A stretch of DNA of 64,000 nucleotides from Vulcanimicrobiota bacterium (GCA_963820825.1 CAWGBN010000007.1:1-64000), one strand, 5' to 3'. Positions 26,233-35,743 are shown, counted from the first letter of the stretch. A program made the numbers and translations. The notes: a model not told the origin generated them from the letters alone.

Positions 26233-29200
26233 CTAGGGCATCGGTGTCGACCGAGGCGCCGGCCGGATCAGATAGAGTCCCAAACCCGGCGCGTAGTTGA
26301 GCTCGGGCACGGTCTTGCCGTCGAATCCGCGTTGCGAAAGCTCCTGCGTCGTCGTCGCGGCCATCCGGCCGCAGACCAGCAGCGCGGGAACGACTGTTGC
26401 ATCCCCCGGATCGAGCTCGTACCAGAGGCCGCCTCTCGCTTGATGCTCGGTAACCGTCCAGCTCGGCGTCGCCGCGCCCGTTGCGAAGTGGTTCTTGAGC
26501 TCGGTCAGCGCCTGCGTCGCGAGATTGCGCACTTGCCCGGTGCACGACGCCGAGACGCGCACTTCAAACGGCGTCGGCGGTGGCGTCGCCGGCAGTTTGT
26601 AGACGCGGAACATCTCCTGCCCCGCCGGCGCCTGCCGCGCGACGAAGTAGAGGCCAACGACCGGCATAAAGTTGAGTTGCGGCACGAAGAAGAGCGGCGT
26701 CGTCGAGGCGTAGAGTTTGCGCTGCGTCACATCGTCGCTGCGCGCGATGTGAATCGTGAGACACCCGGCCAGCGCACGCAGCACGCCGGTTCCCTTCGGC
26801 GTAACGGAGATCGAGTAGGTCGTACCCATGCCATGATAGGTGACGGTCGCGTCGGTGAGCGCCGGCGCGAGCATCGTAGCAGGATAACCCGCCGCGGTGC
26901 GTGCCGCTTCGATCTGCGCGACGTACGCCTTGAGCTCGGTGGAAAGCTGATGCGCCTTGGGAGCGTTCTCGCTGCTGCACGCCACCTGATTCGCGCCGAC
27001 CACAAACGGATCGGCCGGCGGCGTCTGCGGCAGCGGCGAGAAGAGCGATTGGAAACCGCGTCCGCCGCCGGGACCACCACCGGGTCCGCCCGGTCCTCCG
27101 GGCGCACCCGCACCGGCGGGGCCCCCGCCGAAGTTGCGCCCGCCGCCGCGCGGCTGGAACGTCGACGCGGTCTGCGACGAGACGCCTTGGCCGAAGCGCG
27201 CGGAATAGGTCACCGAATAGGTGCGCGGCATCAGCGGCCGCGCGATGTTCGGAATCACGTAGCCGCCCGCCGTCGTGAACGCAACCGCATTCGCCGGACT
27301 GGCGAAGACCGCGCCGTACGTGTTGGTGATGTTCGACGCTGCAAAGGTCAGCGTTCCGCGTTGCAGCTGCGCGGTGACGCCGGCATCGAAGGTGGTATAC
27401 GCCGGCAAGTTGTTTGGATTGTTCGAACTGACGTGCTGCGCGTCGGCCAGCCACTCCAAGATCGACCCCGGCGCCTTGTAATCCAAAGTAATGCCGGCGC
27501 GTTGGAGCGGAACGTTCGGAAGCTGCTCGCCCGGAATCGTGATCGAAAACGGATTGTCGAAGATGTACGTACTCGAGTTGGCCTGCGCGCCGGTGAGATT
27601 GTAAAACGCCTGCACGACGAGACTCCCGAACGTCGCGTACCCGGTGAGCTCCGCGCCCTGATAGAGCCGCTGCACGCCCGAGACCGGCGTCGTAAAGTAG
27701 AGCTGCTGCGGCAGAAACGGCGTGCCCGGCGGCGCGTTGCAGCCCGCGGGCGAGTTGTAGATCGCCGCCACCTGCGAGAGGTAATCGGCGGGAAGCTCGC
27801 CGAGCTGGTTGATGATCGAACCGTTGACGTAGACCGGCAGCAAGACGCCGTTCTGCACTTGACGGTAGAGCGTGAGCGAGACGTTTCCCCCGTGCAGCTG
27901 GTGCGTGTAGCTGACGCGTACCGAGTTCGACGAGCTGTTCGAGGGCTGCTGGCCAGGGGCGTTGCCGTACGCCACCTTCCCGTTGCAATCGAACCGCAGC
28001 ATCGTCGGATCGCTGAGAATCTCTAATCGCCCCTGCGTCGCCGCCGCCCCGCCGAGTGCGAACGAGGCGCTGTACGCATCGCGCGTCGTCGGCCGCCAGG
28101 TGCCGCCGACGCTGGCGAGTTCGGAGAGCCCGGTGTTACCGGTTGCGGTGCTCAAACCCGCCGATCCGAAGAGCATCAGCTTGTCGCTCGAGTGGATCGT
28201 GTCGGTAGCTTGCAGCACGTTGTACTGCGTCGTCTCCGAGCCGCTGTAGAACTGCGCGACCTGCGGCACCAGCGGCGTCGTCGTGAACTGCGACGAGGTT
28301 CCGTACGCCTGAATCGAGATCGTATGGCGCTGCTGTGCCGGCAGCGTCGCGTTCACCGCATATCCCGTCGAGCGCGTGTCGTTGGAGAAGCCGCTCGGCG
28401 ACGGCGCGCCGTTCACGTAGAGCGCAAGCTGGTTCAACAGCCCGCTCGAATCGAGCGAAAAGACCGACGCCTGGACTTGCGTCGCCCCGATCAGCGCCGT
28501 GTCGGAGAGCGAGTAGAGCTGCACGTTGGTTGCGTCGCTATTATTGGGCCCGTATCCGCAGGGGAGCGTCGTCGCCGGATCGCCGTTGTACCGCAGGCAG
28601 ACGATGTTCGTGTTCCGGGTCGAGTTCATGAACATTCCGGTCAGCGAATTACTCTCGCCGAAATCGTAACGCGCGGAGAGGATGTTGCCGGAGACCCAGC
28701 TGTCGCCGTCGTGGTTGTAGTCGAGGCCGCTCGCGTCGAGATAGACCTCCCCGTCAACGAGGCTGGGGTAGAGCCGGCTGACGGTTTGCACCGCAAGGCC
28801 TAACTTGCCCGACGATCCCGTCTCCGCGACCGAGTAATTGTAGCGACCGTTGCTGCCCGTCGACAGCTGCATCTGGGTGATCCAGCTCAGCGTCGGTTGC
28901 AGCGTGCTGAAGTTCACCGCGCCGCCGAGCCCGCCCAGTGACGGGCCGGTGTGCACCGAGGCGCCTTGAAAGAGATCGGTCGCGAATGCGCCGAGATTCC
29001 CCGTCGAGCCCGGCGCGTTGAGCGGAATGCCGTCGAGCGTGAGCTGCGTCTGCGACGGGTCGTGGCCCTCTAAGGAAATCGTCTGCGTCGCGTCGCTGTC
29101 GTCGCTCGACGTCGAGACGGTAACGCCGGAGAGTTTGCTCATCGCATCGGCGAGATCGGTCGAGAGGCGTCGCTGCGGCGAGTTTTGATCGATGCTCGTC

Positions 29201-29595
29201 GACGAAATCGCCACCGAGGCTTTGGCGGTCACCTCGCCGATCACTTTGAGGCCGCCGTTTTCCATCGCCAATGAGAAACTCACCGTAACCACGCGCCCGT
29301 CGAGCACTTCGAACGATGCCGAGGTGAGGCTCGTGTAGCCGCGCTTGACGATGCGCGCCCGGTAGATTCCGTCGGGAACGTCGGTGAAGGTGACCTTGCC
29401 GTTCTTTCCGGTCAGTTCCGAGGTAATGACCGGTCCGTCGAGCAGCACGCGTGATAGCTCGAGCGGCTGCTTGGTGGTCGCGTCGGCCACGACGATGTCG
29501 ATCTCACCGGAATCGGTCTGGGCCGGTGCGGCCGGCGTGAGTACGGCGAATAGCAACAGCAAAGAGAGCAATGCTGCAGCGGCACGTCGCACCAT
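26233..29595 (-). CDS. TonB-dependent receptor with N-terminal carboxypeptidase-regulatory-like domain and long C-terminal extension
   Basis: Signal peptide; F.DVPDG.Y...KRGY; plug ISLEG...T.LTLDGIP, GGAVNF; barrel-end NLPAYTTFD..NITN..PRTY...YSARF. Confidence 0.85.
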   Translation of the reverse strand: MVRRAAAALLSLLLLFAVLTPAAPAQTDSGEIDIVVADATTKQPLELSRVLLDGPVITSELTGKNGKVTFTDVPDGIYRARIVKRGYTSLTSASFEVLDGRVVTVSFSLAMENGGLKVIGEVTAKASVAISSTSIDQNSPQRRLSTDLADAMSKLSGVTVSTSSDDSDATQTISLEGHDPSQTQLTLDGIPLNAPGSTGNLGAFATDLFQGASVHTGPSLGGLGGAVNFSTLQPTLSWITQMQLSTGSNGRYNYSVAETGSSGKLGLAVQTVSRLYPSLVDGEVYLDASGLDYNHDGDSWVSGNILSARYDFGESNSLTGMFMNSTRNTNIVCLRYNGDPATTLPCGYGPNNSDATNVQLYSLSDTALIGATQVQASVFSLDSSGLLNQLALYVNGAPSPSGFSNDTRSTGYAVNATLPAQQRHTISIQAYGTSSQFTTTPLVPQVAQFYSGSETTQYNVLQATDTIHSSDKLMLFGSAGLSTATGNTGLSELASVGGTWRPTTRDAYSASFALGGAAATQGRLEILSDPTMLRFDCNGKVAYGNAPGQQPSNSSSNSVRVSYTHQLHGGNVSLTLYRQVQNGVLLPVYVNGSIINQLGELPADYLSQVAAIYNSPAGCNAPPGTPFLPQQLYFTTPVSGVQRLYQGAELTGYATFGSLVVQAFYNLTGAQANSSTYIFDNPFSITIPGEQLPNVPLQRAGITLDYKAPGSILEWLADAQHVSSNNPNNLPAYTTFDAGVTAQLQRGTLTFAASNITNTYGAVFASPANAVAFTTAGGYVIPNIARPLMPRTYSVTYSARFGQGVSSQTASTFQPRGGGRNFGGGPAGAGAPGGPGGPGGGPGGGRGFQSLFSPLPQTPPADPFVVGANQVACSSENAPKAHQLSTELKAYVAQIEAARTAAGYPATMLAPALTDATVTYHGMGTTYSISVTPKGTGVLRALAGCLTIHIARSDDVTQRKLYASTTPLFFVPQLNFMPVVGLYFVARQAPAGQEMFRVYKLPATPPPTPFEVRVSASCTGQVRNLATQALTELKNHFATGAATPSWTVTEHQARGGLWYELDPGDATVVPALLVCGRMAATTTQELSQRGFDGKTVPELNYAPGLGLYLIRPAPRSTPMP

Positions 29596-29629
29596 GAGCA
29601 CGATTATAGGCAAAGCGCGCGCGCGTGAC

Positions 29630-29651: not shown

Positions 29652-31097
29652 CTAGATCGTGATCGTGACGGCGGTGCCTTGGCCGGGCGCGCTATCGATC
29701 GCGATCTCGCCGCCCGCGCGCTCGACCGCGCGCTTTGCGATGGCTAAGCCGAGTCCTGTGCCGGCGATCTCGCCGCGCTGGTCGCCCCGGTAGAAGCGTT
29801 CGAAAGCATGGAGGCGCTCGGACTCCGACATCCCCGGTCCCTCGTCGCGCACGGTGATCACCGCATGGCCGTTGGTGCGCGATGCGCGCAGATGGATCGG
29901 TGCTTCGGGCGCATACTTCAGCGCGTTTTCGATCACGTTCCAGACGGCTTCGCCCAGCTCGCCGCGGTCGGCCGCAATCGTCTTGACGCCGTCGACGCTG
30001 TAATCGATCGTGCGGCGGTCGTCCAATCGCCGTGCCGCCTCGACCTGACTGCGGAAGAGATCGGCCACGTCGATCTGCTCGACTTGCGGCGCGGCCTCCG
30101 AATCGAGCCGCGCGAGCCGCATCAAGCGGTCGATCAAGCCGCGCATGTGCTCTTTCTCGATCGACATCGTCGCGAGAATCTGCCGCGCGATCCGCGGCTC
30201 CTCGATCGCACCGCGGCGCAGCACGTCGATATAGCCGGCAATGACGGTCAGCGGCGTGCGCAGCTCGTGCGAGGCCTCGGCTGCGAACTGCCGCATGCGC
30301 TCCTCGGCGTGACGGCGATGATCGATCGCCGTTGCGACGCTCTCCACCGCATCGTTAAAGGCCGCGGTCAGCGAGGCGATCTCGTCGCCGCCGGCCATTA
30401 CGAAGCGCCGCTGCGTGTAGTCGCCGTCGGCAAGCGCGCGCAGCGAGCTGCTCACTTCGTTGATCGGCCGCAGTGACTGCTGCGCGAAGAGCCGACCGAC
30501 GAACCACGAGACTATGATCGCCGCCAGCGCGATGGTGAGCACGATGCGCCAGTACGGAACCAGCGAGACGAGCAAGAGCGGGAACGACGGTGCGAAGCCG
30601 ACGTATCCGCCTTCAACGTAGGTTAACGAGAGCGGCTCGAGCCGGGTCGGATCGGGTGGAACCGGCGGAAACGTGCCGCGATAGGTATAGACGTGCGTCG
30701 TGCCGTGTGGCGAGTGAATCGTAGTCACTTGCGGACCGCGCAGCGAGGGTGGAATGAAGTGTTGCATGCCGCCGGCGGCGAGCACGCCCGCGAGCGGTTT
30801 CGGGCGCAGCGTCTTGTCGCCGGCTAGATAGTGGCCTTTGAGATCGTAGACGGTAACGCGCAAGCCGATGCCGCCGAGTGAGTTCACGATCTCGGGCGCG
30901 GCCTGCTTGAGCGTCATTCCCTCGCGCCGATACTGATCGACGAGAATGCGCGCTTCTTCGTGTTTGGCGACCATCACGTCGCCGGAGAACTGCCAGAGCT
31001 CGAAGACCAAGGCGATCGACGAGGCCAAAATGACGATCAGCACCGTGACGCCGAGCAGCACCGCGTACAGAGCGGAGAGTCGCGCTGCCAGTTTCAC
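29652..31097 (-). CDS. HAMP-domain sensor histidine kinase
   Basis: Two TM segments, HAMP, ASHELRTPL H-box, NALKY, DEGPG, FERFYR, GTGLGL. Confidence 0.95.
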   Translation of the reverse strand: MKLAARLSALYAVLLGVTVLIVILASSIALVFELWQFSGDVMVAKHEEARILVDQYRREGMTLKQAAPEIVNSLGGIGLRVTVYDLKGHYLAGDKTLRPKPLAGVLAAGGMQHFIPPSLRGPQVTTIHSPHGTTHVYTYRGTFPPVPPDPTRLEPLSLTYVEGGYVGFAPSFPLLLVSLVPYWRIVLTIALAAIIVSWFVGRLFAQQSLRPINEVSSSLRALADGDYTQRRFVMAGGDEIASLTAAFNDAVESVATAIDHRRHAEERMRQFAAEASHELRTPLTVIAGYIDVLRRGAIEEPRIARQILATMSIEKEHMRGLIDRLMRLARLDSEAAPQVEQIDVADLFRSQVEAARRLDDRRTIDYSVDGVKTIAADRGELGEAVWNVIENALKYAPEAPIHLRASRTNGHAVITVRDEGPGMSESERLHAFERFYRGDQRGEIAGTGLGLAIAKRAVERAGGEIAIDSAPGQGTAVTITI

Positions 31098-31118: not shown

Positions 31119-31817
31119 TTACTGGGAGAGGCCGTATCCTACCCCGCGCACCGTTCGAATGAACGAGCCCGGCTCGCCGGGGCGGTCGACCTTCGCTCGC
31201 AGGTAGGAGATGTAGGTCTCGACGATATTCGGCCCGCCTTCGAAGTCGTGCCCCCACACGATCTCAAGCAGATGATCTTTACTGAAGACGCGGCGCGGCT
31301 CGCGCATGAAGACTTCCAGCAAATCGAACTCACGCTGGGTAAACTCCAGCGGCTCTTTTCCCCGCCAGGCTTCGCGCGTCGCGGGATTGATCGAGATGTC
31401 GCGCCAGCGCAGCACGTTCTCTTCGATGAGTTGCGGGCGGCGCAGCTTTGCCTGAAGACGCGCGATGAGCTCTTCGAAGACGAAAGGCTTGACGAGATAA
31501 TCGTCGGCGCCTGAGCTCAGCGAGCGCACCTTGTCTTCGGTGCCGCCCTTGGCCGTGAGCATGACAATCGGCGCCTGGGTGATCTCGCGCAGCCGGGGCA
31601 GCAGCGTGACGCCGTCGATCTTCGGCATCATGATGTCGAGGACGATCAGTTCGGGGTCGAAGACCTTAACGAGCTCGAGGGCGGCGAGGCCGTCGGTGGC
31701 CGTCCGAACCTCGTAGCCCTCGCGGGAGAGTCCAAGTTCCAACATCTCCCGGACCATGCGATCGTCGTCGATGACCGCAACGCGGGCATTGGGCATAAGC
31801 AGCATTTCTAGCTGCAT
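31119..31817 (-). CDS. OmpR-family response regulator (MprA-like)
   Basis: IDDD, LDIMMP, LTA, GADDYLVKPF; wHTH VETYISYLRAK..IRTVRGVGY; true start may be 31796. Confidence 0.95.
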   Translation of the reverse strand: MQLEMLLMPNARVAVIDDDRMVREMLELGLSREGYEVRTATDGLAALELVKVFDPELIVLDIMMPKIDGVTLLPRLREITQAPIVMLTAKGGTEDKVRSLSSGADDYLVKPFVFEELIARLQAKLRRPQLIEENVLRWRDISINPATREAWRGKEPLEFTQREFDLLEVFMREPRRVFSKDHLLEIVWGHDFEGGPNIVETYISYLRAKVDRPGEPGSFIRTVRGVGYGLSQ

Positions 31818-31831
31818 CGTGCGTTCTCACC

Positions 31832-31848
31832 CTTGGAGCCGCCTGAAC
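31832..31848 (-). promoter_or_regulatory. OmpR/MprA-like direct-repeat box upstream of the response regulator
   Basis: GTTCAG-gcggc-TCCAAG, 21 nt upstream of TAGAAA (31805-31810). Confidence 0.55.
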
Positions 31849-31858
31849 GAAGCGCTTC

Positions 31859-32314
31859 CTAGGCGGCGCGGCCCGGCAGCGGCCAGCGCTCCAATCGTTG
31901 CCCCGAGACCAGCGCCGCGGGTCCGATTGCGGCTAGCGGGTGACTCACGAGCCGGACGCCTCGCTCGGCCAGACCGGTGACGGTGGCTTCGTCGGGATCC
32001 CAATGCGCGAACAAGTGGATCACGTTGGCGCCCGTTGCCTCGGCGAGGGTGGCGATGACATCCGGCAGCGCGCATTCGCCCTGCACGATGAGCCGGCGGA
32101 CGACCTCGGCATGGAATCGAGACCCGCTCCAGCCGGCGGCTACGATGAGGACGCGCGAGACCTCGCTGAGCTGGACCGCCTCGAAATCGACCAGCGCCGC
32201 TTCGACCTGGCCAGCGAGCTCGGGCGCCGGTTGGGCGTGGAGCGTGGCCCGGGCGATCGTCGCCTCAGGCCCAGCCGTCAGGAGCGCCCCCGCCCCGATA
32301 AAATACTCGTCCAT
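31859..32314 (-). CDS. Hypothetical protein
   Basis: ATG-started 151-aa ORF with typical high-GC codon usage. Confidence 0.65.
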   Translation of the reverse strand: MDEYFIGAGALLTAGPEATIARATLHAQPAPELAGQVEAALVDFEAVQLSEVSRVLIVAAGWSGSRFHAEVVRRLIVQGECALPDVIATLAEATGANVIHLFAHWDPDEATVTGLAERGVRLVSHPLAAIGPAALVSGQRLERWPLPGRAA

Positions 32315-32404
32315 GCCGTGATTCTGGCATGGACGAGTGCCAACTGGGTGGCGCACAAGACGCCACCACGGGGATTTGCGAGCCTAAGCTTCAGCTAGAG
32401 GCCG

Positions 32405-32467
32405 CTAGAACGGGTCCGGCGGCGTTACGTGTAACGCGATGAGAAGCATGATGAGCAAGCTAAGCAT
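32405..32467 (-). CDS. Small hydrophobic peptide MLSLLIMLLIALHVTPPDPF (20 aa), candidate signalling peptide
   Basis: Strong RBS GAGGAGGT (32471-32478) just before ATG; TAG stop; directly downstream of the LuxR-type regulator. Confidence 0.75.
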   Translation of the reverse strand: MLSLLIMLLIALHVTPPDPF

Positions 32468-32556
32468 CGTACCTCCTCACGGGGAAAAGAGAGTACGGGG
32501 ATTACGGACGTATTGAGTGCTCTTCCTGTAATGGCCAGCGGGGAGCGCAGCCGCCC

Positions 32557-35178
32557 TCAGATGAGGCCGCGTCGCTTAGCGGCGCGTATTGCCTCCGAAT
32601 GACCGTGGCAATCCAACTTGGCGATTGCATTTGCGATATGAACGCGCACTGTGTGAATGCTTCGACCGGTTTCCGCAGCAATGTCCTTGGGGATGAGGCC
32701 CTCGGCTAGCCGTCGCAGCACATCTCGTTCCGACGCCGTCAGGCATGCCGGGGCCGTCCGCGTGGCGCTCGCTAGCGTCCGATCGACGGCGGCCATAACC
32801 CTCGCGACATCCCCGTATCCCAAGGTCACCAGCCGTCCGATCTGGTCGGATATTCTCGACGATTCGTCGGCGGCGCCTGTGCCGTAAAGCCTCGTTATGA
32901 GCGTCGCCGCCTTCGTTACCAGCTGCTCGATCGCATCGTCGTTTCTCTGGCCGCGCAGAAGGCGCTGAGCGTTCGCAAACCGTCCGTTGGCGAACTCCGA
33001 AAGCGCACAAAAGGCACGACACACGGCTAATGCACGACTCCCAAAGAGCCCTCGAGGCTGTATAGTCCGCAAGATCGCCATAACATCGCGCGTTTGCGCC
33101 AATGAAGCCTCCCGCGAACCATCAAGCGACAAGAATAGAGCATATTCCGCGCCAGCCACCGCCCTGTCAACTGGATTAGGCATCTCTCGCCAGCATGCCG
33201 CAAGTAGACCGTGAGCTTCCGCAAAACATCCTTCCCACGCCGTTCTCACGCCTCGAAAAAGCGTGACGTAATGCTCGGCCCGGGCGTCCATCCCTACCAC
33301 CGTTAGCTGTCTTTCAATCTCGGCCGCTTTGCAGATGTCCCCTTTGCGCGTCGCAGCGCTTAACATTTGCAACAGTGCCGTCCGCACCGCGAACACGTCG
33401 CCCGCTTTCGCCCCCGCATTGGCGGCTATCTCTGCATATCGGAGCTGCTCCTCTACGTCGTCACGCTCCTGGAGCGACAAATTCGAGAGCACCGCAAGCG
33501 TGCGAGCCGCAATAGCATAGAAGTGAAGCTCGAGTGCCAGGTTCTTCGCTTGCACGAGTCTTTCAAACGCCTGGTCAATCTTGCCAGTGTGCCTATTTAT
33601 TATTCCGAGGTGGTGCAAGACGCGCGCGCGTGTTGCTTCCATCTCAACGAATGGCATTAGCGATTCGATCTTTTCTACGGCCTCGCCAATGTGTGACTTG
33701 TTATCGGCTATCAATTTTTGCGCAATGGCTAACGACAAGGCCTCGGCCCTATGTGCTGCAGACTGTCTGACGTCGTCCGATATAGGGTCAAGCACAGCCG
33801 TCACCTCGCGGCCCTGATTACCAATCAACGACGCTAGACGCAGGCTTGTCCGAGCCAAAAGGTCGCGGTCGTTACCCGAACGGGCCAACGCACGACGGAA
33901 GAACGATTCGGCTCGCGCGAACTTGCCGGCGCTTGCGAACAGTGCACCTTGCAACGCGAGCACGGCTGCATTTTCCCTGCGCGTCCGATCGTCGAGCGAT
34001 TCGACTGCGCGCGCGACGATATCGCTTCGGGCGCGCTCAAGCAGATCGAAGCCGTGCTTTTCCAGCAGTCGGAGAATATCGGCCGTTGACTCCGCTGCTG
34101 CGTACGATGCCAGGGCGTGTTCGACGTCGCCGTCGGCTTCGAGCGCGGCCGCCGCCCGTGCATGAACGAGCTGCTGCGAGCGTTTCCCGGCGAGCGCGCT
34201 CTGATAGCGCAAGAAGTCCCGGAACAGATCGTGACATTGATAGATGTGTGGCGACTCCTCGTAGATGAACGCCGTGCGTTCTCGTAGTCGCTCGATGATC
34301 GTGAGTGCGCGATCGAAGCCGGCGCGTTCGAGCACGCGGAGGTCGATTGCTGGAAGCGCGATGGCAACGTCCAGCAGCGATCGCTCATCGTCGTCGAGCG
34401 TTGCGTAAACCTGCTCGGCTAGAAGCCGGTAGATCATCTCACGTGTGAGGGCCGAGATATTGCCTAAATCGTTCGATCGCACCGACGAGCGCAGCGCGAA
34501 GCTCATGGCCGCCGGCCAGCCTTCCGTCAGCCGCAGGATATCGGCGAGCTCGTCGTCACTAATGCCAAGTCCGAGGCGGTCGGCCGCCTCGCGCGCCTCG
34601 TCCAGAGTAAATGCCAGCTCGCCTTCCGCGATCGCCAGATCGGCGTCTCGATAGGCGAGCCACGTTCCGATCGGAAGGCCCGTAGTCGCGCGCGATGCCA
34701 AAATCCAGCGAATCTTTCCCTTCGTCCGCTCGATCAGCGATGTCAGAAATCGCCCGACCTCCGGATCTCCCCCGGCGACGTGAACGTCATCGATGGCGAT
34801 GACGCCTGAAACGTTCTCCAAATGTGCGTGCATCCAACGCGCCAAATCGGCGCCGCGCCGAGGTGAATCCGTACTGCGTTCGTACGCGCCGGCCAGCGCG
34901 ATCATCGCGTGCGGCGCCTCCTCCCGCAATGCCTCGGCGAAGCCGCGCAGGAACCCAAGCAGCGTCGAGTGTTCGGAGCGCAATGCAAAGCATACGTTTG
35001 GCTCACTCAGGCTGCGAAGGTGCTGACGAAGCGCGACCGATTTCCCATACCCGGCAGGAGCGATGAGCAACGCGATTTGATAACCGCCTGCGACCGCAAG
35101 GCGCTCCGCGACGCGCGGACGCGCGATCGGCGCAGATGCGTCGATGCTGCTATCGGTCGGGGCTAGGCTTCGGGACAT
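32557..35178 (-). CDS. MalT-like STAND/AAA ATPase, helical-repeat and LuxR-HTH transcriptional regulator
   Basis: APAGYGKS Walker A, IDDVH Walker B, TEGWP, HDLFRDFL, C-terminal LT.SE..VL..LAEG...K.IA...S..TV..H. Confidence 0.92.
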   Translation of the reverse strand: MSRSLAPTDSSIDASAPIARPRVAERLAVAGGYQIALLIAPAGYGKSVALRQHLRSLSEPNVCFALRSEHSTLLGFLRGFAEALREEAPHAMIALAGAYERSTDSPRRGADLARWMHAHLENVSGVIAIDDVHVAGGDPEVGRFLTSLIERTKGKIRWILASRATTGLPIGTWLAYRDADLAIAEGELAFTLDEAREAADRLGLGISDDELADILRLTEGWPAAMSFALRSSVRSNDLGNISALTREMIYRLLAEQVYATLDDDERSLLDVAIALPAIDLRVLERAGFDRALTIIERLRERTAFIYEESPHIYQCHDLFRDFLRYQSALAGKRSQQLVHARAAAALEADGDVEHALASYAAAESTADILRLLEKHGFDLLERARSDIVARAVESLDDRTRRENAAVLALQGALFASAGKFARAESFFRRALARSGNDRDLLARTSLRLASLIGNQGREVTAVLDPISDDVRQSAAHRAEALSLAIAQKLIADNKSHIGEAVEKIESLMPFVEMEATRARVLHHLGIINRHTGKIDQAFERLVQAKNLALELHFYAIAARTLAVLSNLSLQERDDVEEQLRYAEIAANAGAKAGDVFAVRTALLQMLSAATRKGDICKAAEIERQLTVVGMDARAEHYVTLFRGVRTAWEGCFAEAHGLLAACWREMPNPVDRAVAGAEYALFLSLDGSREASLAQTRDVMAILRTIQPRGLFGSRALAVCRAFCALSEFANGRFANAQRLLRGQRNDDAIEQLVTKAATLITRLYGTGAADESSRISDQIGRLVTLGYGDVARVMAAVDRTLASATRTAPACLTASERDVLRRLAEGLIPKDIAAETGRSIHTVRVHIANAIAKLDCHGHSEAIRAAKRRGLI

Positions 35179-35743
35179 CTCCCTTCCCAATTCGCTGGCT
35201 CAAAAAATATGCTAATAGCGCACCTTCCCAATGCAAGCGTGGCGCGAGCCATTGGTGCTGCGCGGGGCAGCTGATTTCGCCAAGCTCCAGCACCAAACTT
35301 CCATCTCGCGCGTCAACTTGCTTGAACGCATAGTAGCCGCGCAAACCCGCCGTAAAGTTATCCGGCTGGAATCCGAAGGGCCAATAGACTCCGTACAGGC
35401 TGCGCCATGCTGCGGCCGCGGGTGCGTCGCGCTTGTGTTGATAGCCGATGGAAGCGCTGCTCGCGCAGGGTGGATTCGAGCCGTCGAAATGGATGAAGAC
35501 CGTCGCGCCCACACGATAGTTTCCGGCGAAATCGGCGGGGAGCCGCGCAACGGTTATGCCGTGACTGCGTAAGATCGCCGTCGCCGCATCGGCAACGATC
35601 GGCGTCCAATCACGCTCTCCGGCGGCACCAAGGTTGCAATGGTGCTGCGGGAAATGCGCGCAGCTCGCGGGGCGGCCTTCGTGGCCGGCCGAGATCAGCA
35701 CGTCGTAGACGAGCAGAGAAGCTCCGAGGACCAGCGGCAGCAT
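35150..35743 (-). CDS. N-acetylmuramoyl-L-alanine amidase-like protein (Amidase_3 fold)
   Basis: ISAGH, GE, FIHFDG, LELG zinc-ligand pattern. Confidence 0.7.
   Translation of the reverse strand: MLPLVLGASLLVYDVLISAGHEGRPASCAHFPQHHCNLGAAGERDWTPIVADAATAILRSHGITVARLPADFAGNYRVGATVFIHFDGSNPPCASSASIGYQHKRDAPAAAAWRSLYGVYWPFGFQPDNFTAGLRGYYAFKQVDARDGSLVLELGEISCPAQHQWLAPRLHWEGALLAYFLSQRIGKGDVPKPSPDR

Follow-up and report, generated by a model that had tools for sequence, protein, structure and literature searches.

The window studied here is a stretch of 64,000 nucleotides (nt) of a Vulcanimicrobiota bacterium (GCA_963820825.1 CAWGBN010000007.1:1-64000), which belongs to Ca. Cybelea, in the family Baltobacteraceae of the Candidatus Eremiobacterota (Vulcanimicrobiota). 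Near its middle, a gene of only 20 codons lies directly downstream of a large MalT-like STAND regulator, and an original prediction made from the same DNA had read these two genes as a candidate pair for peptide signalling. The genes of the region follow each other on the minus strand as two TPM-domain genes, a 197-amino acid (aa) amidase-like open reading frame (ORF), the regulator, the small ORF, a 151-aa gene, an OmpR-type response regulator (RR), a histidine kinase (HK) and a CarboxypepD_reg/TonB-Plug protein. The regulator, a Shine-Dalgarno (SD) motif, the 20-aa ORF and a hairpin, all of them described in the original prediction, were recovered at the same positions of the minus strand, and the short gap proposed between the regulator stop and the peptide ATG also stands, with the correction that it counts 89 nt and not 90. 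All genomes compared in this work are metagenome-assembled. The features at the core of the locus are the following:

32557..35178, minus strand: MalT-like STAND regulator of 873 aa, ATG at 35178 and TGA at 32557-32559 (ORF call, translation, Pfam)
32468..32556, minus strand: regulator-peptide intergenic region, presumed peptide promoter region (alignment, box scoring)
32471..32478, minus strand: SD motif GAGGAGGT of the small ORF (read from the sequence)
32405..32467, minus strand: micropeptide gene, 20 codons plus TAG, ATG at 32465-32467, product MLSLLIMLLIALHVTPPDPF (translation)

The micropeptide gene and its family

The product MLSLLIMLLIALHVTPPDPF is laid out as an N-terminal hydrophobic run followed by a conserved tail, TPPDPF, and the conserved motif runs right up to the stop codon, a trait shared with the pro-peptides of the RRNPP class. 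The regulator was found in all 24 other Cybelea genomes searched, and an SD-led ORF of the same kind, 20-22 aa long, lies 3′ of it in 8 of the 24 loci first read, to which further Cybelea loci added more. No internal gaps are needed to align the 27 distinct Cybelea peptides, which show a tail of the form TPPDP[FL], where P16, P17, D18 and P19 are invariant, the prolines among them being encoded by all four synonymous codons. The coding signature was obtained from 30 unique ORF sequences, 29 from Cybelea and one from outside the genus, in which variation reached 0.465 at third codon positions in comparison with 0.21 and 0.072 at the other two, and the pooled pN/pS was 0.32 for the reading frame of the ORF, with values of 1.05 and 3.02 for the two off-frame readings. 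Whole-genome searches with a peptide profile gave one match each in 13 of the 25 Cybelea genomes, and 12 of these 13 copies sit directly past the 3′ end of the regulator; the window peptide is the sole copy in its own genome (E 4.6e-10). Judged by its substitution pattern, the ORF of 20 codons is a gene that is translated and kept by purifying selection, because the coding signature appears only in frame, the PPDP motif is kept invariant through synonymous codons, a single copy per genome lies beside the regulator and the gene is present across genera. The profile found no matches in 16 genomes from other families, and scans of the peptides with Pfam and NCBIfam matched no family.

The thirteenth copy is an orphan on another contig of G008, a genome of the Cybelea clade with no peptide beside its regulators that is described below (locus L202, G008:C87:25940-25999, minus strand); it has its own SD motif and lies in a stretch of ~1.8 kb without large ORFs. 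Degenerate or frameshifted remnants of the peptide were seen at six further Cybelea loci, some of which may be long-read assembly errors.

At the level of the family, we drew 151 Baltobacteraceae genomes including that of the window (G000), 125 of which contain a regulator homologue at E ≤ 1e-40; nine of those with the regulator are unpublished, and downstream DNA was taken from the 60 best matches in published genomes. A strict filter, requiring 17-45 aa, a 10-residue window with a mean hydropathy ≥ 2.3 and at least one Pro within the last eight residues, found a candidate on the coding strand of 79 of the 119 regions lying downstream of a regulator (73 of 110 when de-duplicated) and in none of the 119 reverse-strand controls. 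For the remaining loci a relaxed filter was used, which 5 of 59 reverse-strand controls also match, so these extra cases are weaker. Regarding the possibility, raised in the original prediction, that homologous regulators would have no downstream short ORF, a matching ORF was found past the regulator in 27 of the 29 sampled genera, 26 of them with the strict filter alone. Homologous ORFs encode 19-36 aa under the strict filter, with a median length of 21 aa and a median distance of 92 nt from the regulator stop, and they are preceded by an SD-like motif in 66 of 73 cases and start with ATG in 62 of 73. Their products share a pattern of M-[LIV]-[TS], ~14-18 residues rich in A/V/I/L, and a tail such as PPxP[IV]G; of the 49 peptides from outside Cybelea, 38 have G as their last residue, 31 carry PP in the tail region and a single one contains K or R. 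A comparable ORF was found past none of three full-length proteobacterial MalT-like loci. On this comparative evidence, the small ORF belongs to a family of 19-36-aa peptides encoded directly 3′ of orthologous MalT-like STAND-LuxR regulators throughout the Baltobacteraceae.

One locus departs from the common form in a peculiar way: at L041 (G098) the usual micro-ORF is replaced by a 35-aa ORF with three tandem 8-residue units ending in PVGGA, which resembles an intragenic duplication of signal units.

A second line of comparison comes from lipoproteins. Of the 49 peptides from outside Cybelea, 16 contain a Cys, which always lies 5-9 residues before the C-terminal end and in 12 of them stands in a lipobox-like context; the window peptide has no Cys, and hence no lipobox of its own. 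In a sister family, whose regulators are ~30% identical, the same position is taken by a canonical lipoprotein gene of 49-55 aa in 4 of 4 loci, whose product starts with a charged n-region, continues with a hydrophobic core and a lipobox and has PPN[LH] at the end of its tail, and two divergent Baltobacteraceae regulators (L171 and L179) are directly followed by lipoproteins of 54 and 87 aa. The lipoproteins of both the sister family and the divergent branches have a Pro-rich C-terminus. The micro-ORF thus looks like a shortened small lipoprotein gene that lost its Cys in some lineages, Cybelea included, since relatives keep either a lipobox-like Cys or a canonical lipoprotein in the same position, and the lipoproteins at the equivalent place in distant relatives suggest that the peptide is exported. 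The window genome encodes the lipoprotein signal peptidase LspA and nine binding proteins of the Opp/Dpp type, a gene content that would permit lipoprotein processing and peptide uptake and proves neither.

Paralogous regulators (L166-L185, L186 and L187; ~33% identity) are directly followed by a large lipoprotein in 17 of the 19 loci read, out of 20 retrieved. This paralogue-linked lipoprotein (413 aa in L187) has, past its lipobox, tandem Pro-rich repeats of 7-8 residues of the ALPGD type and a C-terminal subtilase-like GGTSxGAP motif.

The regulator and the palindromic box

Three parts make up the regulator: a STAND NTPase, a TPR-like helical-repeat sensor (residues ~395-808) and a LuxR-type helix-turn-helix (HTH). 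Pfam places AAA_22 at residues 34-159 (E 8.6e-8), with nSTAND_NTPase5 also matched, a TPR_2 match below threshold (E 0.0035) and the GerE/LuxR HTH, which passes the cut-off with an E of 9.3e-11, at residues 813-867. The N-terminal NTPase carries a Walker A motif, whose P-loop GYGK columns are invariant among 32 aligned regulator sequences. The NCBIfam MalT model aligns to residues 16-433 with an E of 1.8e-34, and the MalT structure 8bob (E 8e-11) and PH0952 were matched in the PDB; the protein is however not a MalT orthologue (118.9 bits versus an equivalog cut-off of 537 in NCBIfam), and its likeness to MalT is confined to the architecture. For residues 395-808, AlphaFold2 modelled from the 32-sequence alignment an all-helical repeat of 22 helices with a predicted local distance difference test (pLDDT) of 94.5 and a predicted TM-score (pTM) of 0.90. 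The top Foldseek matches of this model were the peptide-binding TPR domains of LGN, together with domain III of MalT (1hz4, rank 3, E 1.8e-4), and the highest TM-scores among the early rows corresponded to RRNPP receptors (NprR 0.58, phi3T Rap 0.52 and RapH 0.50). Such a likeness of the predicted sensor to NprR, Rap and LGN (E ~1e-3 to 1e-4) is generic for TPR-like superhelices and is no proof of peptide binding. A complex prediction for the regulator of genus g50 (residues 240-815) with its own 36-aa peptide gave scores of 0.57, 0.01 and 0.00, and counts neither way.

As a side note, many long-read metagenome-assembled genomes carry split regulator reading frames (L098, L105, L108, L113, L115, L123, L126, L131, L138, L141 and L142), which are either assembly indels or pseudogenes.

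Directly past the regulator stop, or overlapping it, most lineages show an 18-bp palindrome, CTAsTnAAwTTTnAsTAG. The consensus was drawn by eye from the same loci and its scoring is therefore partly circular; with this in mind, at least 13 of the 16 specified positions are matched in 60 of 113 non-duplicate loci and all 16 in 17 loci, and a score of 13 came up among 50 shuffles at only 6 loci. Each of the 60 box-bearing loci has a −10-like TAnnnT hexamer after the box, at 22 nt in 38 loci and at 23 nt in 22, a spacing that puts the box centre near −44, that is, ~44 bp upstream of the predicted transcription start. A centre near −44 is the geometry of class II activation by LuxR-type proteins, and in LuxR-LuxI promoters the lux box is centred near −42.5. 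The inner bases of the box differ by lineage and change together with the recognition-helix motif of the HTH in at least five classes:

Recognition helix TVQTHIQN: box CTACT..AGTAG
Recognition helix T[VI]QAH[IV]QN: box CTAGT..ACTAG with TTAAC arms
Recognition helix TVR[VA]HIAN: box with TTGAC arms
Recognition helix TVQTHIKH: box with CCCAA/TTGGG arms
Recognition helix TVDKHLSN (sister family): own box variant

The classes are also clades, and the association is not statistically independent, but this pattern is what a co-evolving pair of factor and operator looks like. The box at a fixed spacing to the hexamer, and its inner bases co-varying with the recognition helix, lead us to infer strongly that the regulator binds the box and controls an operon with the peptide as its first cistron, except in the sub-clade of the window. 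Among the aligned Cybelea intergenic regions the −10-like position is conserved, and in two of these regions inspected by eye the distance between a GGA[AC] motif and that position looked kept. The arrangement is like that of LuxR-LuxI in its ~18-20-bp palindrome at a fixed distance from the −10 and in the GerE-type HTH encoded next door. It differs in that the downstream gene would itself be the candidate signal, with no synthase, and in a ligand domain unrelated to the autoinducer-binding domain.

Elements and genes beyond the micropeptide

Past the small ORF, the following features were annotated in the window:

32347..32367, minus strand: hairpin GGTGGCG (32361-32367) / CGCCACC (32347-32353) (base pairing)
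32337..32352, minus strand: invariant 16-mer GCCACCCAGTTGGCAC, candidate promoter/operator element (54 aligned loci)
32305..32338, minus strand: 13-bp hairpin around the start codon of the 151-aa gene (terminator-like scan, alignment)
31859..32314, minus strand: conserved 151-aa protein of no known family (Pfam, tblastn)
31119..31817, minus strand: OmpR-family RR (Pfam Response_reg and Trans_reg_C)
29652..31097, minus strand: sensor HK with HAMP, HisKA and HATPase_c domains and a periplasmic loop (Pfam; 14 Cybelea kinases aligned)
26233..29613, minus strand: large outer-membrane protein with CarboxypepD_reg and TonB Plug domains, last conserved member of the cluster (Pfam)

The first hairpin, which had been described as following the peptide gene, does so, although it is better read as part of a conserved element ahead of the next gene. 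In Cybelea its 5′ arm varies and yet stays complementary to the invariant 3′ arm, and at locus L106 the 3′ arm has changed together with a matching change in the 5′ arm. The 3′ arm falls within an ultra-conserved stretch with GCCACCCAGTTGGCAC as its core. This core is shared between genera in the 54 aligned loci, always begins 38 nt ahead of the ATG of the 151-aa gene and is also kept in species without the small ORF. The core occurs exactly twice in the genome, at 32337-32352 and at G000:C2:61799-61814 (both on the minus strand; a reversed-pattern control gave 0), and the second copy stands 38 nt ahead of the ATG of a transposase-like ORF. Both copies have TAnnnT at −12 to −7 from the ATG and no SD motif, which suggests that the element is a promoter of leaderless mRNAs and not the terminator behind the peptide gene. 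A sigma-54 reading of its TGGCAC was dropped, with a spacing one base off the canonical one and no Sigma54_DBD found in the 85%-complete genome, and an Rfam scan of 31700-32700 returned no family (best 23.5 bits versus a gathering score of 79). In Cybelea, a compensatory double change in the locus pair L127/L128 preserves the 13-bp stem around the start codon of the 151-aa gene, and this hairpin may gate its translation.

Homologues of the 151-aa protein were detected in 25 of 83 downstream regions (tblastn E ≤ 1e-3), placed in other genera past an HD-GYP gene. The protein has 27 invariant columns in 31 sequences and an alpha/beta AlphaFold2 model (pLDDT 87.4), for which there was no Pfam family, no usable match in the ESM Atlas and nothing at E ≤ 1e-3 in Foldseek. 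The fold candidates of VIA-align were too weak to be retained, with a best Z of 5.6 for actin-like or RNase H-like subdomains and of 3.6-4.0 for N-domains of Xaa-Pro peptidases. At the other end of the cluster, the 197-aa ORF (35150-35743, minus strand) overlaps the regulator start by 29 nt and is conserved upstream of the regulator in other genera; a weak Amidase_3 match (E 0.056) was obtained for one homologue.

Three types of cluster can be told apart. In most Baltobacteraceae the order is regulator, peptide, HD-GYP, 151-aa gene, RR and HK, the HD_5 (HD-GYP-type) protein of these other genera having 326-328 aa and lying between the small ORF and the 151-aa gene; Cybelea is without it. In the sister family, regulator, lipoprotein and HD_5 protein are followed by genes in convergent orientation, and RR-HK is missing. 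Of all the neighbours, the regulator alone is found with the peptide in each of the three types, and the large outer-membrane protein keeps its position in 4 of the 5 other-genus loci examined (L093-L096). From the stop of the small ORF to the next gene there are from a few nt to ~150 nt, and in most genera ≤ ~45 nt to the HD-GYP start. No genes for modification, immunity or export were recognised in the cluster. A leader acting as an attenuator for branched-chain amino acids was dropped, since the genes that follow belong to signalling. The HK has in its periplasmic loop (residues ~140-150) the sequence LPPDPT, which echoes the peptide tail and is conserved in 14 Cybelea kinases; the likeness of this loop to the tail was judged a probable coincidence, the loop being kept with or without the peptide and the loops of other genera being unlike their own peptides.

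Possible roles of the micropeptide

The reading we favour, which we put forward tentatively and as possible rather than probable, is that of a regulator-micropeptide pair with feedback through the regulator's own sensor, the tail being the ligand. The starting point would be the 20-codon ORF itself, apparently translated, under purifying selection and standing beside the regulator across the family. In most lineages, the window's sub-clade excepted, the LuxR-type HTH would bind the 18-bp palindrome and drive an operon that begins with the peptide, whose hydrophobic N-terminus would probably work as a minimal signal or anchor leaving the Pro-rich tail outside the cytoplasm, either tethered or released. 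In a last and speculative step, the tail would be the active signal, which is released, taken up and read by the TPR-like sensor, closing an autoinduction loop akin to those of Rgg-SHP or PlcR-PapR and built on a STAND ATPase receptor. This ligand step is favoured by the regulator as the sole constant neighbour, by a confidently predicted TPR-like sensor with NprR, RapH and phi3T Rap as structural neighbours, and by the Opp/Dpp genes.

As described in PMC10075063, the RRNPP signature consists of a receptor of 250-500 aa with TPR-type repeats and an adjoining pro-peptide gene, whose product has 10-100 aa by default and 21-50 aa in the validated range, and is exported through Sec (SignalP) or in an SHP-like manner. 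As in Rgg-SHP, PrgX-PrgQ and PlcR-PapR, a tiny peptide gene adjoins here a transcription regulator with predicted TPR-like helical repeats, 89 nt away on the same strand; the conserved portion of the peptide is its C-terminal end, the predicted operator of the regulator lies in the peptide promoter in most lineages, and a length of 20 aa (19-36 in homologues) falls within the 10-100 aa and near the 21-50 aa given there (PMC10075063). Unlike those systems, the receptor has 873 aa with a STAND NTPase and a LuxR-type HTH, outside the 250-500 aa of the same source (PMC10075063), and the host is a diderm-type candidate phylum and not one of the Firmicutes. The peptide also differs in its lack of a charged n-region, its lipoprotein relatives and a tail that does not diversify with the sensor. 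With the MalT/LAL class of STAND regulators, the protein shares the order of NTPase, arm, superhelical sensor and LuxR HTH (matches 8bob and 1hz4), while it departs from MalT in scoring below the equivalog cut-off and in the three proteobacterial MalT-like loci without a downstream ORF. Inducers are known for a minority of the MalT/LAL class, and these are small molecules such as maltotriose. The parts of the literature reached by full-text searches named no LAL/MalT-type STAND regulator with a cognate gene-encoded peptide, and contained nothing on this locus.

Several observations weigh against a peptide ligand of this kind. Eleven Cybelea species form a clade without an adjacent peptide, all of them with full-length regulators; in a quick maximum-likelihood tree of 39 regulators, the ORF-less loci are one clade with a Shimodaira-Hasegawa-like approximate likelihood ratio test (SH-aLRT) value of 100. 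Among five genomes of this clade searched with the peptide profile, four gave no match better than E 0.28, one of these four being only 74% complete. Neither in the peptide-less clade nor in the window's own Cybelea sub-clade does the canonical box find a match, the window reaching 9 of 16 positions. Co-variation between tail and sensor, which the original prediction had proposed to look for, is not seen within Cybelea, where the tail is invariant while the sensor diverges fastest of all domains (mean p-distance 0.46 versus 0.25 for NTPase/arm and 0.35 for the HTH). The ratio of sensor to NTPase divergence is 1.4-1.5 in the peptide-less clade in comparison with 1.8 elsewhere, values that concern a single clade and are not independent; relaxed evolution of the sensor after peptide loss was not seen, the sensor being relatively less diverged in that clade. 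Moreover, a positively charged n-region is missing from the peptides, a lipid- or helix-anchored product is not diffusible without cleavage, and many relatives look like membrane-anchored lipoproteins and not like diffusible peptides. The host is of the diderm type, as indicated by its outer-membrane TonB-Plug protein, so that a returning signal must cross two membranes. Finally, the operon that the peptide gene opens also contains HD-GYP, RR and HK genes, and the peptide could act on those instead. Of the layout originally proposed as a signalling pair, there stand a conserved SD-led ORF and a STAND/TPR-like/LuxR regulator, with a box in most lineages; what does not fit it are the peptide-less clade, the invariant tail, the lipoprotein relatives and the box-less sub-clade of the window.

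Many of these same facts would suit an envelope-acting micro(lipo)protein, a regulated target rather than a ligand, anchored in the inner membrane through its helix, or in relatives through a lipidated Cys, and with a periplasmic tail that modulates another component, for instance the periplasmic domain of the HK or the outer-membrane TonB-type protein, an alternative that we regard as possible and only slightly less likely. MgrB and SafA act on PhoQ, and NlpE and RcsF on their own kinases. To these and to QseG the peptide would be similar as a tiny and presumably membrane-anchored product in a signalling regulon with a periplasmic-domain HK, and dissimilar in being far shorter (~6-9 exposed residues), in standing always beside a STAND regulator and in the kinase missing from the sister-family cluster. 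In 12-16 of the 49 peptides a lipobox-like Cys keeps a constant distance to the C-terminus, the sister family and divergent branches have canonical small lipoproteins in the equivalent place, and the Baltobacteraceae operon runs on into RR, HK and a large outer-membrane protein. These features all point in this direction, as do the regulator kept without peptide in the 11 species and an invariant tail facing a diverging sensor. Nevertheless, the sister family has no RR-HK after its HD_5 protein, where the next genes are convergent, Cybelea retained the peptide after the loss of HD-GYP, and the PPDP loop of the kinase is conserved regardless of peptide presence. With neighbours so variable, there is no constant candidate partner in the envelope or the cytoplasm except the regulator.

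Another role at the level of the product, either as a membrane-active peptide like a toxin or bacteriocin or as a precursor modified by enzymes encoded elsewhere, appears improbable. Size and hydrophobicity recall type I toxins and some leaderless bacteriocins, and no function is assigned to the 151-aa and 197-aa proteins encoded nearby; the lack of recognised modification, immunity or export genes in the cluster and a strict place after the regulator in a signalling operon of 27 genera are however atypical of toxins. Very improbable, in our view, is a cis-acting upstream ORF with a functionless product, in which ribosome pausing at PPxP would tune the next gene through coupling or hairpin remodelling. 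Polyproline motifs such as PPD and PPN, found in these tails, are pause sites dependent on EF-P, the ORF stop is ≤ ~45 nt from the HD-GYP start in most genera, and conserved hairpins follow the ORF in Cybelea, one of them enclosing the next start codon. Against such a role, the peptide is under selection over its whole length, with its N-terminal M-[LIV]-[TS] and its hydrophobic run, and a pause peptide would have no use for the fixed-position Cys or lipobox or for the full lipoprotein versions. The next gene lies at variable distances, between a few nt and ~150 nt, the orphan copy of G008 has no large ORF adjacent to it, and the element ahead of the 151-aa gene persists in species without the ORF. 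That we are dealing with a functionless chance ORF is hardly credible, for all its length of just 20 codons, given its conservation, the frame-specific substitutions, the SD motif and the strand control.

Returning to the regulator-micropeptide pair, what the comparison offers is a micropeptide family beside a STAND-LuxR regulator in ~27 genera of an almost uncultured phylum of soil and peat. Peptide signals that are encoded by genes and read by cytoplasmic TPR receptors are regarded as a speciality of the Firmicutes. It is conceivable, though we consider it doubtful, that the Baltobacteraceae use an SHP-sized peptide derived by lipoprotein shrinkage, which would be exported and whose tail of 6-9 residues would be read by a STAND regulator that in turn activates the peptide operon through its co-evolving box, with cyclic di-GMP turnover (HD-GYP) and a two-component system as output. 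Should the peptide indeed be read by the STAND sensor, it would be the first cognate peptide of any STAND/LAL regulator, and a case of peptide autoinduction in a diderm candidate phylum; regulator, box and peptide provide a ready parts list and a concrete hypothesis for a heterologous assay. If it were only an envelope micro-protein, it would still represent a family outside Pfam and NCBIfam, together with a clear case of co-evolution between a factor and its operator.

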